From a virus: a stretch of DNA of 64,000 nt. Positions 2,720 through 57,909 of this stretch are shown piece by piece. The translations under genes were made by a program, and so were the position numbers. Within the stretch, counting starts at the first letter, position 1. Each line of letters starts with the position of its first letter. Below the pieces are notes generated by a model. That model had not been told where the DNA came from, made no database searches, and was given only the letters and a program-made list of their open reading frames with translations. Location of the stretch: UHGV virus genome UHGV-1483955. One strand, written 5' to 3'.

Positions 2720-4149
2720 TCCTCCTCATACGAAATATTAAAGGTGGAGTTTTCTGTATCCAGATAAACGAAATCGTAAAAGCCGTTGGACTCATTCCAC
2801 TCGACAAATTCCAGATAAAAGTCGCGGAAATAACCCAGCGTTTCGATAAATGCCCAAACGTCTTTTTTCTTGATTAGGATGTACTTGCCGACACGGTTCG
2901 GATCAAAGAAAGTTGAGTCACGCCCAAATTTTGTTTCCAGTGCCGACTTCAGCTCATCAGTCACGTTCTCAATGGTCAGGCTTGCCGATATCCGCCCAGT
3001 GATGGTGATCTTAAAGGGGAGTTTTCTGACCTCTTTATACGAGAATTTCTTGTTCAACTCATTCGGCACCTTCTTAAAGGCAGCCAGGATCATTTCTTCA
3101 AGCTCTGACTGGCTTTTGTTTGGATGCCATCCTGAAATAAATATCTTATTGATATTCCGAACATTATAAGCACCATCTAATTTCTCTTGCTGGCCTTCGC
3201 CCCATGCCTTTACCCAGGACAGTCCCGGGATGTTACGCACCAGAAAATACGTATAGTCCCCGCCCCATACGACCTGATCATCATAGGCAAGGTAATATTG
3301 TGCACGATTACGTGTGATCTCCGTTGTTTCGGCATCGGTACCTGCGGTTATGGGTGTCGTTGTCTTAACTGAAATCAAATTAGCTAAATTAGCCGCAGAA
3401 TCGACAGGAGTCAGGTTTTGGCCAGCAACCAGGGTTATATCTCCGTTGGTGCACCATACCTTAAGTGTAATGGTCGAGCCTTCTGGCGGTATTTGCCCAA
3501 TTAGCCCATCACCGAATCGAACCCCCAACTGCTCGGATGGCTTATAAAACTCAACGTAGACCTGGCTTTTACTACCGGCTAACCGGAACATAGTGCTGGA
3601 AGACCACTGCGTGGTCTTACCATCGGTCGTCACGAATACTTCCAGCTTACAGCAGACAGCAGTGAGAGCCTTTGATAACACGACTTCCAGAAATTCTTTG
3701 GCTGCCGTAACGGTATATGTCACCTCCTGGATTTCCAACTGTGCCACTTCTACCGTACCGGTGCCGTCAACCAACCTGCATACATCCATAGTCATGTAAG
3801 GGTACTGGTCGTCAGATATTAAAGGCATGTTTTTGGGGATTACCGCTGGGGCATCTTCACTTGTGGCGGTGATCTCAATCATCCCCGATGACGGTGTTGG
3901 CTTGGTACCAACGTAACTATTCGTTTCTGCCGCTGCCAGGATAGAGGAACGCCGCGTCGCGGTCGATATAAAGCCTTCAGCCAGCGCCGCATCGGCATAC
4001 TGAAAGCACCTGTAGACAATCTGGGTAATAAACAATGTCAGCATCGAGACAAATTGAGAGCCGACAAACTTCGACCAGAATGAATCTTTCTCGACAAGCT
4101 CTTCAAACTCTGCACGAATACTGTCTTTAGTCGGTGTTGTTTTACTCAT
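2716..4149 (-). CDS. baseplate wedge-like structural protein (477 aa)
   Basis: Size and position between a small gpW/gp25-size protein and tail fibre genes; overlapping start/stop codons indicate an operon. Confidence 0.45.
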   Translation of the reverse strand: MSKTTPTKDSIRAEFEELVEKDSFWSKFVGSQFVSMLTLFITQIVYRCFQYADAALAEGFISTATRRSSILAAAETNSYVGTKPTPSSGMIEITATSEDAPAVIPKNMPLISDDQYPYMTMDVCRLVDGTGTVEVAQLEIQEVTYTVTAAKEFLEVVLSKALTAVCCKLEVFVTTDGKTTQWSSSTMFRLAGSKSQVYVEFYKPSEQLGVRFGDGLIGQIPPEGSTITLKVWCTNGDITLVAGQNLTPVDSAANLANLISVKTTTPITAGTDAETTEITRNRAQYYLAYDDQVVWGGDYTYFLVRNIPGLSWVKAWGEGQQEKLDGAYNVRNINKIFISGWHPNKSQSELEEMILAAFKKVPNELNKKFSYKEVRKLPFKITITGRISASLTIENVTDELKSALETKFGRDSTFFDPNRVGKYILIKKKDVWAFIETLGYFRDFYLEFVEWNESNGFYDFVYLDTENSTFNISYEEE

Positions 4150-13379: not shown

Positions 13380-14180
13380 ATGCAACAAACATTCAATGCG
13401 GATATGAATATATCAAACCTTCATCAAAATGTCGATCCTTCAACCACTCTGCCCGTTATTTGTGGTGTTGAAATTACGACCGACCGCGCTGGCCGTTACA
13501 ACCTTAATGCTCTACACAGAGCGAGCGGACTCGGTGCCCATAAAGCGCCAGCTCAATGGCTAAGAACGCTGTCAGCCAAACAGCTCATCGAAGAGCTTGA
13601 AAAAGAAACTATGCAGAATTGCATAGTTTCGTTCGAAGGCCGTGGCGGCGGCACTTTTGCCCATGAATTGCTCGCAGTGGAGTACGCAGGCTGGATTTCT
13701 CCCGCGTTTCGGCTGAAGGTAAACCAGACATTTATCGACTATCGAGCCGGAAGATTACAACCTGCTATTCCGAAGAGCCTCCCAGAAGCTCTCCGTTTGG
13801 CTGCTGACCTGGCAGAGCAAAAGCAACGGCTGGAGCAAAAAATGCTGATGGATGCACCTAAAGTCGAATTCGCCGAACGCGTTGCTACCGCCAGCGGGGT
13901 TCTAATCGGCAACTATGCCAAAGTGCTCGGCCTGGGCCAAAACTATCTCTTCACCTGGTTGCGTGATAACGGAATTCTGATCGCAACCGGTGAACGCAGG
14001 AACGTCCCCAAACAAGAATACATATCCCGTGGGTATTTCACCCTTAAAGAAACCGTGATCGATACAAGCAATGGAAGCAGGATTTCTTTCACGACTCGTA
14101 TAACCGGCAAAGGTCAGCAGTGGCTGATGAAGCGATTGCTTGATGCTGGTGTGCTGGTACCTGTCGCGGCAACGCGCTAA
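13380..14180 (+). CDS. kilA: KilA (KilA-N plus KilA-C domains)
   Basis: 266 aa; C-terminal domain paralogous to ant1 C-terminus (PEALRLAADLAEQK, GVLIGNYAKVLGL, GKGQQWL). Confidence 0.7.
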   Translation: MQQTFNADMNISNLHQNVDPSTTLPVICGVEITTDRAGRYNLNALHRASGLGAHKAPAQWLRTLSAKQLIEELEKETMQNCIVSFEGRGGGTFAHELLAVEYAGWISPAFRLKVNQTFIDYRAGRLQPAIPKSLPEALRLAADLAEQKQRLEQKMLMDAPKVEFAERVATASGVLIGNYAKVLGLGQNYLFTWLRDNGILIATGERRNVPKQEYISRGYFTLKETVIDTSNGSRISFTTRITGKGQQWLMKRLLDAGVLVPVAATR

Positions 14181-14209: not shown

Positions 14210-15055
14210 ATGCTGGCTAAAGTCACTTTCCTGAGCTGTATAACGATGAGCGATTTTACTTTTTCTGGCTATGAATTGGCCTGCTTTGTAACACACTCCG
14301 GTCTATCCCGTAGCGCCGGGCATATCCTGTCGCAATGTGCAAATCTAGCGGCAACAACCAGTGAATACTTCATTCACAAGCCTCACCGCCTGATCGCGGC
14401 AGAAACTGGTTATAGCCAATCAACCGTCGTTCGTGCATTCCGTGAAGCTGTAAACAAAGGAATTCTGTCTGTAGAGATTGTTATCGGCGATCACCGTGAA
14501 CGTCGCGCTAACCTGTACCGGTTTACACCATCCTTTTTGGCCTTCGCACAACAAGCCAAAAATGCGCTGATTGAAAGCAAATTAAAGATCTCTTCAGCGG
14601 CAACCAAGGTTAAAGCTGTTCTCGCTAAGACATTGGCTTTATTTAATTTTTTATCCACACCCCCATGTCAAAATGATACCCCCTCCCCCTGTCAGGATGA
14701 CGTGGCAATAAAGAATAAGAAGTCACAAGTTAAAAAAACAAAAAGATCAGTTTCCGGCGGTGCCGGAACGACCAGACTCAAAAAATTGACTTCATGGATC
14801 GCTGAGGCAAAAACAAAGGCTGACAATCTGCGGTTATCCAAAAAACGCGCTCAAAAACATGAGTTCAAGCAGAAAGTAGAGGCGGCAGCGCGGAAATATG
14901 CTTACCTGAAGAACAAGCGTTCTCCTGATATTGGCGGTGTATCAAACTTCGATAATCTGCCGCATTGCATGACGGTAAACGAAGCTCTTAATGCGGTTTT
15001 AGCCAAAAATAAAGATAACGAACAATGGGGTATACCGGCAGGATTCAGAGGGTGA
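14210..15055 (+). CDS. repL: RepL-like lytic replication protein
   Basis: 281-aa ORF directly downstream of kilA, basic C-terminal half; size and position match P1 repL. Confidence 0.65.
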   Translation: MLAKVTFLSCITMSDFTFSGYELACFVTHSGLSRSAGHILSQCANLAATTSEYFIHKPHRLIAAETGYSQSTVVRAFREAVNKGILSVEIVIGDHRERRANLYRFTPSFLAFAQQAKNALIESKLKISSAATKVKAVLAKTLALFNFLSTPPCQNDTPSPCQDDVAIKNKKSQVKKTKRSVSGGAGTTRLKKLTSWIAEAKTKADNLRLSKKRAQKHEFKQKVEAAARKYAYLKNKRSPDIGGVSNFDNLPHCMTVNEALNAVLAKNKDNEQWGIPAGFRG

Positions 15056-15351
15056 TAGATTGCTCTAATCTGGAGTCACCTGGCGTTTTCAGTTTGAGGT
15101 CGGAGAGGCAATCTGATTTTTTACAGTTAGCGATCGCTTTTGCAGGATATGTTTGTATTGGCTTCTGTGTATACATGATCAGCCGAAAAATGCTTGTCGA
15201 TATCGACCGCAAAGAACAAGCAGAGGAGATCTTAGTATGGATTTTCTTTGGCGCGGTCTGGCCATTAGGGATCATGTTTGCTGCAACATTTCTTCTGATG
15301 TGGATATTCACCCTTCCTGGTGATTTCTATAGAAAAAAAGCCAGACATTGA
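15025..15351 (+). CDS. small membrane protein (start uncertain)
   Basis: ORF with two hydrophobic segments; start codon ambiguous. Confidence 0.3.
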   Translation: MGYTGRIQRVIDCSNLESPGVFSLRSERQSDFLQLAIAFAGYVCIGFCVYMISRKMLVDIDRKEQAEEILVWIFFGAVWPLGIMFAATFLLMWIFTLPGDFYRKKARH

Positions 15352-15474
15352 TACAATCGTTGCGGGTGCTTGAGGCTATCTGCTTCAGGCATTACCCGAA
15401 AAGCAGATAGAAGAAAGCCCCAGATAACATCACGCGTCCTGCAAGACGCTTAACATTAATCTGAGGCCATATCT

Positions 15475-15681
15475 ATGCTTAGCATACGTAGATTAGCCTC
15501 TTACCGACCAAAAGGTCAAGGAGAAGCAGGCTATGAAGCAGCAAAAAGCGATGTTAATCGCTCTGATCGTCATCTGTTTAACCGTCATTGTGACGGCACT
15601 GGTAACGAGGAAAGACCTCTGCGAGGTACGAATCCGAACCGGCCAGACGGAGGTCACTGTCTTCACAGCCTACGAATCTGA
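15475..15681 (+). CDS. mok: mok-like overlapping reading frame
   Basis: ORF starting 58 nt upstream of hok and overlapping it in another frame, as in hok/mok/sok loci. Confidence 0.4.
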   Translation: MLSIRRLASYRPKGQGEAGYEAAKSDVNRSDRHLFNRHCDGTGNEERPLRGTNPNRPDGGHCLHSLRI

Positions 15682-15688
15682 AAGGTAA
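15533..15688 (+). CDS. hok: Hok/Gef-family type I toxin (51 aa)
   Basis: MKQQKAMLIALIVICLTVIVTALVTRKDLCEVRIRTGQTEVTVFTAYESER; family signature LxTRKxLCExR ... EVxxFxAYES; AAGGAG upstream of ATG. Confidence 0.8.
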   Translation: MKQQKAMLIALIVICLTVIVTALVTRKDLCEVRIRTGQTEVTVFTAYESER

Positions 15689-15767
15689 GAGACCTGGCGG
15701 GGAGAGATCTCCGCCACTCTTCGTGTGTCAGGTATCCTCAATGCACCCTTTCCTCTCCAAATAAAAA

Positions 15768-15785
15768 AGCTCCCGAAGGAGCTTT
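15768..15785. terminator. bidirectional terminator hairpin
   Basis: GCTCCCGAAGGAGC flanked by A-run upstream and T-rich downstream, between hok (+) and the convergent minus-strand gene. Confidence 0.5.
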
Positions 15786-15804
15786 AAAATACAAGGGATG
15801 ACTC

Positions 15805-16314
15805 TTAATCCCACTCAATCCAGTTGTAGACGATACGAAGTGACGGGCGCACAGCGGCAGTCACATCTTCGGTACTAAAGTCGATTGCATCACTGTAGAT
15901 TTTGCAGTCCAACATTTCAATTGTTGTAGCAGCTTTTGTCACAGCGTTAACCCCGGAAGATTTGGATTCAGGGGTCGCAGCCATCGTGATATCAACATAG
16001 TCCTTCGCCGCAATGCGATCCTTGATGAACTGAAGAATATCGCCTTCGATAGTCTCCACGCACTGGACCTGGATTTCCCCAGAGTTTCGAATTGGTCCGT
16101 GCTGGTTGAACTTCACACCATTCGGACCATAGTCCTCCACATCCTCGCGGGTCATTTCAGGAATTTGCGACGTGCGAACCAGTACGCTGATATCTTCATG
16201 GCCTGCAAAAGTGAGCTGGAATTCAGAAGATACCAGTCGTTCGCCTTTGGCCGCGTTGGCAGTATAGCGGCCCTTAATAAATTTACGGTTTCCCTTAGTG
16301 TTATTGTGCCCCAT
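15805..16314 (-). CDS. virion structural protein (tail tube candidate)
   Basis: 169-aa ORF at end of the head/sheath operon. Confidence 0.35.
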   Translation of the reverse strand: MGHNNTKGNRKFIKGRYTANAAKGERLVSSEFQLTFAGHEDISVLVRTSQIPEMTREDVEDYGPNGVKFNQHGPIRNSGEIQVQCVETIEGDILQFIKDRIAAKDYVDITMAATPESKSSGVNAVTKAATTIEMLDCKIYSDAIDFSTEDVTAAVRPSLRIVYNWIEWD

Positions 16315-57307: not shown

Positions 57308-57529
57308 ATGCAATCCATTAACTTCCGTACCGCGCGCGGCAACCTTTCTGAAGTGCTCAACAATGTTGAAGCCGGGGAAGAGGTTGAAATCACCCGCAGA
57401 GGCCGTGAGCCAGCAGTAATTGTCAGCAAGGCTACTTTCGAAGCCTACAAAAAAGCGGCGCTGGATGCTGAATTTGCATCCCTGTTTGACACCCTGGACT
57501 CCACCAACAAGGAACTGGTTAACCGATAA
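57308..57529 (+). CDS. phd: Phd antitoxin
   Basis: [73 protein letters not shown] (73 aa) matches P1 Phd as recalled. Confidence 0.9.
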
Positions 57530-57909
57530 TGAGGCATATATCACCGGAAGAACTTATTGCGCTTCATGATGCGAATATAAACCGCTACGGCGGCCTGCCG
57601 GGAATGTCTGATCCGGGTAGGGCAGAGGCCATTATCGGGAGAGTTCAGGCCAGAGTTGCCTACGAAGAGATCACCGACCTTTTCGAAGTCTCCGCCACCT
57701 ACCTGGTGGCTACAGCGAGAGGGCATATATTCAATGATGCCAATAAGCGTACCGCGCTAAACAGTGCGCTGCTATTTCTACGCCGTAACGGGGTGCAGGT
57801 ATTTGATTCACCTGAACTGGCAGACCTTACCGTAGGGACTGCGACAGGCGAGATATCTGTATCTACTGTCGCCGCCACGTTACGTAGATTGTATGGTTCT
57901 GCGGAGTAG
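57529..57909 (+). CDS. doc: Doc toxin (Fic-fold kinase)
   Basis: 126 aa; ATG overlaps phd stop (TAATG); motif [12 protein letters not shown]. Confidence 0.9.

Follow-up and report, generated by a model that had tools for sequence, protein, structure and literature searches.

A hok/mok/sok-type toxin-antitoxin cassette between repL and bplB of a P1-like phage-plasmid

The closest described relative of the locus considered here is hokW-mokW-sokW, found in Stx phage 933W and in the integrated lambdoid prophage Sp5 (Sakai prophage 5). HokW is a toxic inner-membrane protein, and sokW, which has a promoter of its own, acts as its antitoxin with a partial dependence on RNase III and Hfq (Takada et al. 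2021, PMC8621323). Mutations in the sokW promoter abolished the antitoxin activity; moreover, after treatment with mitomycin C the sokW RNA of Sp5 vanishes and HokW is made about 1 h ahead of the endolysin, while deletion of hokW-sokW delays lysis and halves the phage yield (PMC8621323). The founding member of the family is hok/sok (parB) of plasmid R1, which has relatives on IncFII plasmids and whose toxin shares 44% identity with HokW (PMC8621323). In addition, hokD (relF) of the Qin prophage of E. coli K-12 encodes a toxin nearly identical to the one described below, and has lent its name to the latter in PGAP annotation. As regards the element that carries the present locus, P1-like phage-plasmids are known to possess eight hypervariable accessory regions, one of which, variable region 5, holds rlfA, rlfB and pmgF (PMC9603915).

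The DNA analysed, a stretch of 64,000 nucleotides referred to here as the window, is that of a P1-like phage-plasmid, as evidenced by its C4 antisense RNA and the targets of the latter, its C1 operators and its kilA-repL and bplB-pmgG backbone. Rfam gave matches for both C4 and c4-a1b1 in the window, and the C1 operator consensus was matched 13 times, as against 0.3 expected. The genes kilA, repL, bplB and pmgG and the flanks of the cassette are 96-99% identical to the reference P1 genome (NC_005856); this homology stops at 15069 and restarts at 15763, and the interval is filled by the cassette (Table 1). The slot is identical to that of the reference, between repL and bplB, and is the one described as variable region 5 in P1-like phage-plasmids (PMC9603915), whereas the content is unrelated: in P1 about 1.8 kb of rlfA, rlfB and pmgF, encoding a DUF3800 protein, RlfB and PmgF, and in the window 0.69 kb of ORF81 and hok/sok. 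The rlfA-rlfB-pmgF insert of P1 and the window cassette share no sequence similarity. Our main conclusion is that this cassette is very probably an intact hok/mok/sok type I system that a P1-like plasmid prophage carries in its variable region 5 and that would work in the canonical way described for R1.

The initial annotation had named phd-doc as the only addiction module of canonical P1. In agreement with this, a laboratory P1 genome (OP279344), with rlfA-rlfB-pmgF at the site of the cassette, gave neither an Rfam sok match nor a Hok-like tblastn match anywhere along its length. The phd-doc module, which had also been located in the window, was confirmed with NCBIfam and Pfam models (phd: TIGR01552, 48 bits, and PF02604 PhdYeFM; doc: TIGR01550, 128 bits, and PF02661 Fic/DOC). 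The proposal that the element carries two addiction systems of different types, hok/sok of type I and phd-doc of type II, is thus borne out by the content of the window.

The left junction of the cassette (15069/15070, within 15059-15075) lies directly after ATTGCTCTAAT, the conserved 11-nt core of the C1 operator Op55/Orlf, and the recombination breakpoint of the cassette falls inside this operator. The Op55 of P1 itself fits the operator consensus in the 11-nt core only and, since that core is kept in the window, a C1 site may persist between repL and the cassette.

Besides the hok/sok locus, the cassette includes ORF81, which is annotated by PGAP in p779-3. The start codon of ORF81 (15106-15108) reads AGG in the window and ATG in all 20 of the other loci compared that have this sequence, so that the change is private to the window and reflects a mutation or an error of sequencing; the frame remains open from an ATG at 15025 within repL. 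No Pfam match was obtained for ORF81, for Mok or for the 198-aa protein of the alternative allele described below, and a sequence search of the PDB gave no match.

Table 1. Features of the cassette, its flanks and the phd-doc module (positions in the window; RNA features and promoters are predicted)
Feature	Position	Strand	Remarks
kilA	13380-14180		P1 backbone
repL	14210-15055		directly upstream of the cassette
Cassette	15070-15762 (693 bp)	+	ORF81 and hok/mok/sok; replaces rlfA-rlfB-pmgF of reference P1
ORF81	15106-15351	+	small two-TM protein, second gene of the cassette; full-length match to PHROG 3772, E 9e-54
hok promoter-like site	15330-15357	+	TAGAAA, 16-nt spacer, TACAAT; TG (extended -10) at 15349-15350; promoter scan
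hok mRNA	15364-15748	+	inferred 5' end to end of fbi; Rfam position 1 = 15364
tac	15364-15375	+	5' end GGGUGCUUGAGG; pairs with fbi (MFE structure); invariant in 64 distinct loci
Sok RNA gene	15413-15483 (about 71 nt)	minus	5' tail, long hairpin 15468-15416, U-rich tail; mapped from 933W sokW
mok frame	15475-15681	+	68 codons, +1 relative to hok, overlapping; SD GAGG 15463-15466
Sok promoter	15490-15519	minus	-35 TTGACC (15519-15514), 18-nt spacer, -10 TAATCT (15495-15490); read from sequence
hok toxin gene	15533-15688	+	51 aa; SD AAGGAG 15518-15523; Pfam HOK_GEF
3' UTR stem-loop	15695-15716	+	in both predicted folds; compensatory changes (helix 17)
fbi	15736-15748	+	CCUCAAUGCACCC; pairs with tac (MFE structure)
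Hairpin terminator of bplB	15766-15785	minus	conserved P1 backbone; terminator scan, minus strand only
bplB	15805-16314	minus	directly downstream of the cassette
pmgG	with bplB, from 15805	minus	P1 backbone
phd-doc, type II module	57308-57909	+	phd 57308-57529, doc 57529-57909; overlap at 57529

The presence of a hok/mok-type locus beside repL, with a 51-aa ORF of Hok/Gef signature, had been proposed from the bare sequence, and the profile searches confirm it. The Hok ORF matched Pfam PF01848 (HOK_GEF) over residues 6-47 with 78.7 bits (E 2.4e-22, cut-off 22) and PHROG 251, 'MokW-like host killing', with E 4.9e-32. The NCBIfam Hok models stayed under their own cut-offs for this protein (49.5 vs 73), so that the PGAP name HokD rests on other evidence and does not call for a reading of orthology. 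The commonest Hok sequence among 64 relatives, which we take to be that of K-12 HokD, differs from the window Hok at 3 residues. The K-12 hokD is said to lack the mok/sok regulatory part, whereas the window possesses the complete regulatory set, and 'HokD' is therefore a label of similarity and not of orthology.

The mok-like frame proposed to overlap hok was found as a 68-codon ORF, whose product matches PHROG 37205 (E 8e-21); its SD and its ATG (15475) fall within the Sok-complementary region, and the frame is open in 11 of 11 P1-type sequences. All 11 also have in common an extra T at 15513-15514 (GGTCAAGG) with respect to the lambdoid hokW-type loci, 933W having GG-CAAGG at this place. This single base has two consequences: mok is shifted from the hok frame, in which it would be a Hok extended to 70 aa, to the +1 frame of 68 codons, and the spacer of the Sok promoter becomes 18 nt instead of 17 nt. 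In 49 lambdoid relatives, on the contrary, mok extends Hok in frame, as mokW does (70 aa), and the upstream ATG of the IncFII copy examined is likewise in frame with hok. The mok of R1, on the other hand, is reportedly out of frame too, with about 70 codons, so that both layouts exist in the family.

By sequence, the window locus is closest to the hokW-sokW lineage. Gene order and element spacing are identical to those of hokW-mokW-sokW in 933W and Sp5, the DNA identity with 933W reaches 86.5-87.6% over about 390-400 nt, from the -10 box to fbi (15352-15748), 47 of 51 residues (92%) are identical between HokW and the window Hok, and the tac and fbi sequences and the positions of the Sok gene and its promoter are the same. 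The two loci differ, apart from the mok frame, in the Sok promoter, which in the window has a better -35 (TTGACC vs TTGCCT) and a better -10 (TAATCT vs TAACCT), as well as the longer spacer, and in the host replicon, a plasmid prophage in the window and an integrated lambdoid prophage for hokW-sokW. Cross-neutralisation between the window and 933W systems is doubtful, as the two also diverge in the 5' tail of Sok and in the sequence it targets. R1 hok/sok and its IncFII relatives have the same architecture as the window, with moderate DNA identity in which the matches are limited to conserved blocks, namely tac GG(C/G)GCTTGAGGCT, the SD-mok GAGGC, AGCCTCTTACCG, CAAGGAGAAG..ATGAA, TACGAATC and fbi. 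Furthermore, the R1-type locus has a strong hairpin of its own downstream of fbi, whereas the next hairpin in the window is that of bplB.

The initial annotation had also suggested a comparison with the Rfam hok/sok models, and this gave a full-model match far beyond chance. The leader (15364-15538, plus strand) scored 112.2 bits against RF01794 (gathering score 59, E 1.1e-24, model positions 1-157 of 157), above the 87 bits of an R1-type control locus. The match ends at the hok AUG and lies on the plus strand because the model describes the leader of the hok mRNA; the R1-type control is matched on the hok mRNA strand likewise. The -10 box of the promoter-like site ends 6 nt ahead of the inferred mRNA start at 15364 and is the first conserved block common to the window and the lambdoid hok loci. 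The true 3' end of the hok mRNA probably lies a few nt beyond 15748.

The RNA from 15364 to 15752 is predicted to fold with a dG of -153.2 kcal/mol (z -7.66), its 5' end being paired with fbi. When the last 30 nt or so are left out (15364-15721), the 5' end is predicted to refold on itself, and the segment 15483-15497, which covers mok codons 3-7 and the Sok -10 region, passes in these thermodynamic predictions from paired in the full-length fold to unpaired in the trimmed one. The stem-loop of the 3' UTR occupies the place that the GGCGGGC...GCCCGCC hairpin has in the R1-type locus, a hairpin at which the processed R1 mRNA ends; by analogy, processing of the window transcript to its active form would stop at this stem-loop. 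The predicted folds are those to be expected under the canonical model, in which the full-length mRNA is inert and the processed one active.

On the complementary strand, a Sok-like antisense promoter, for which a search had been recommended in the initial annotation, was found at the position equivalent to that of sokW: TTGACC and TAATCT align with the promoter region of 933W sokW (TTGCCT/17/TAACCT). A consensus promoter scan missed this site because just 3 of the 6 positions of its -10 box agree with the consensus; this poor fit, combined with the 18-nt spacer, counts against our main conclusion, and the promoter is accepted on the grounds of positional homology to sokW. The RNA downstream of it is predicted to fold with a dG of -32 kcal/mol (z -4.39). 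A Sok gene with its own promoter, 5' tail, hairpin and U tail can therefore be recognised in the window, and it is predicted to be transcribed.

The conservation of the locus was assessed with an IMG/VR search using the Hok protein, which gave 80 loci; 64 distinct sequences were aligned. In most contexts the homology with the window at the DNA level spans 15352-15748, from the -10 box to the final base of fbi, and the block common to more than 60 independent hok loci stops at 15748; this span delimits the functional unit. The tac-fbi helix (helix 1) is paired at 100% in the 64 distinct loci, all changes being from GC to GU. In shifted-register controls the paired share drops to about 40%. The percentage of pairing is inflated because the 64 sequences are close relatives and the structure tested is the predicted fold of the window itself. 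Double changes of the compensatory kind were observed in the 5' hairpin (AU to GC in 8 sequences, CG to UA in 11) and, in the same alignment, also in helix 7 and the 3' hairpin. In all 64 distinct loci the Hok ORF is intact and nearly invariant (0.06 bits per column).

By far the most variable segment among the 64 loci is the one that combines the Sok 5' tail and the mok start (15467-15488, alignment columns ~106-127), with 0.75 bits per column and 21 alleles, vs the 0.06 bits of the hok ORF. This variability suggests a diversification of the specificity with which Sok and hok mRNA would pair.

The initial annotation further described a terminator following hok. A hairpin does exist at this place; however, it was scored as a terminator for the minus strand, that is for bplB, and on the plus strand it is followed by AAAA and not by a U run. 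In P1 the same hairpin also follows pmgF and bplB, and it lies outside the cassette, since the P1 homology resumes at 15763. The terminator was consequently rejected as an element of the cassette and is regarded as the bplB terminator within the conserved backbone. The terminator scan detected no good plus-strand terminator after fbi, a point against our main conclusion, and no dedicated terminator of the cassette thus sets where the hok mRNA ends, although the bplB hairpin may also stop or stabilise hok transcripts. Upstream, the interval between repL and hok contains only a weak terminator-like hairpin (15308-15323).

Regarding its distribution, the full arrangement, from junction to junction, is present in 263 plasmids of PLSDB, vs 507 with repL (~52%), and in these 263 the conservation of the cassette is 98% or more. 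Among 5,426 complete E. coli genomes 235 have the arrangement, as do six phage records, namely phi456, vB_EcoM-Ro157c2YLVW (two records) and three 'P1' isolates. In the E. coli genomes that match, the query, of which about 300 bp are flanks from the P1 backbone, finds 2 places at the median and 10 at most. Thus, with about 52% in PLSDB, the hok/sok cassette is the commonest allele among natural P1-like plasmids. RefSeq labels the gene 'type I toxin-antitoxin system toxin HokD' and GenBank MH422554 labels it MokW. In the limited collection of literature searched, no discussion of hok/sok on P1-like elements was found. The locus is therefore an already known one, belonging to a known family, with a characterised close homologue, a known variable site and hundreds of annotated records, which in P1-like elements appears to have been annotated but not studied.

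The hok part of the cassette occurs as well in larger hybrid plasmids, such as NZ_CP029688.1 (IncFIB/IncHI1B, 152 kb), where it is flanked by IS21 and IS3 elements and still has the bplB of P1 downstream. These hybrids are P1-derived cointegrates and not independent acquisitions. The occurrence of the segment 15236-15709 on plasmids unrelated to P1 was considered and rejected, since the example, pLKJULY7989, is itself a P1-derived hybrid with IS insertions and bplB downstream.

A third allele of the slot is represented by RCS47 (locus 3324-3583), SJ46 (2764-3016) and p19-7P1 (2501-2963), corresponding to 15236-15501 of the window. It keeps ORF81, the hok promoter, tac, the complete Sok-coding stretch and the Sok -10 box, diverges at about 15501, and has in place of hok an unrelated gene of 198 aa on the opposite strand, without Pfam or PADLOC match. 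This allele is an orphan sok remnant.

If the window locus operates in the canonical way, the following sequence of events is to be expected. A weak constitutive promoter would direct the synthesis of a stable hok mRNA of about 390 nt, which in its full-length form, with tac paired to fbi, would be neither translated nor bound by Sok. Slow 3' trimming to the stem-loop of the 3' UTR would remove fbi, allowing the molecule to refold and to expose the mok start region. In plasmid-bearing cells, the short-lived Sok RNA (~71 nt), made from the stronger promoter of the opposite strand, would pair with the mok start region (15467-15483) and block mok and, via translational coupling, hok, the duplex being cleaved by RNase III. 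Once Sok synthesis stops, as a result of plasmid loss or of a transcription block, Sok would decay first, the processed mRNA would be translated, and the 51-aa Hok would insert in the inner membrane and cause cell death. What the data show are the sequence elements, the predicted structures and the homology to a tested system; that the window locus is expressed and processed, encodes an active toxin and stabilises the plasmid is inferred. On a unit-copy plasmid prophage, a working hok/sok would make post-segregational killing automatic, on top of phd-doc, and this is the role that we would assign to it by preference.

The same machine could, however, have lysis and phage release after prophage induction as its main role, as in Sp5, rather than the punishment of plasmid loss, a reading that we regard as possible but rather doubtful. 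Induction would then deplete Sok, or swamp it by read-through from the C1-controlled kilA-repL genes directly upstream. The loss of sokW, the early HokW and the halved yield in Sp5 (PMC8621323) speak for such a role, as do the closeness of the window locus to the hokW-sokW lineage, the co-orientation of hok with kilA-repL across nothing but a weak hairpin, and the 11-nt core of Op55 kept at the cassette junction. P1 nevertheless has its own set of holin, antiholin and endolysin, the read-through transcription has to be assumed, and Sp5 is an integrated prophage, so that a plasmid-loss scenario, which applies here, has no place there. With hok co-oriented behind the C1-repressed kilA-repL, the Op55 core conserved and no strong terminator in between, induction could send read-through into hok; the broader idea that hok/sok in P1-like phage-plasmids is wired to the lysis-lysogeny switch, and is not only a module that punishes loss, is nonetheless unlikely in our estimation. 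Post-segregational killing and a possible contribution to lysis after induction would in any case be compatible, not exclusive. A different trigger would be a lytic phage that halts host transcription, whereupon Sok synthesis would stop and the Hok so freed would bring about early cell death, which amounts to abortive infection or phage exclusion. The R1 hok/sok system is reported to reduce the propagation of T4, although this effect is said to be modest. The site, moreover, is one of the eight hypervariable accessory regions (PMC9603915). In the window, no neighbouring defence genes were seen, and since PADLOC defence models matched neither Hok, ORF81 nor the 198-aa protein of the alternative allele, this role is unsupported here and is considered improbable.

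Finally, the locus could be a decaying, non-functional relic, passively carried in the variable region like several chromosomal hok loci. Many of those of E. coli K-12 reportedly are inactive despite a similar appearance, which counts against function; moreover, the neighbouring ORF81 has no ATG in the window, and the region does decay, as RCS47, SJ46 and p19-7P1 keep only a truncated hok leader. Against this, the promoter, tac, the SD and ATG of mok, the Sok promoter and hairpin, the SD and ORF of hok, the 3' hairpin and fbi are all intact, the Hok ORF is strongly conserved in every one of the distinct relatives, tac and fbi are always paired, and the Rfam score exceeds that of the R1-type locus. 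With every element intact and conserved, decay is very improbable and was rejected.

No new mechanism is implied by these results, whose value lies mainly in annotation and context. If the cassette were wired to the lysis-lysogeny switch, through read-through or through a depletion of Sok as in Sp5, Hok would act early, by damaging the membrane, in support of lysis or of the abortion of superinfection. The sok of the third allele, if still transcribed, could counteract the hok of a rival P1-like plasmid. The genome of laboratory P1 is unrepresentative at the repL-bplB site, where about half of the natural P1-like elements add a type I killer to phd-doc, and the hok/sok cassette is relevant to the use of P1 as a model of plasmid maintenance.
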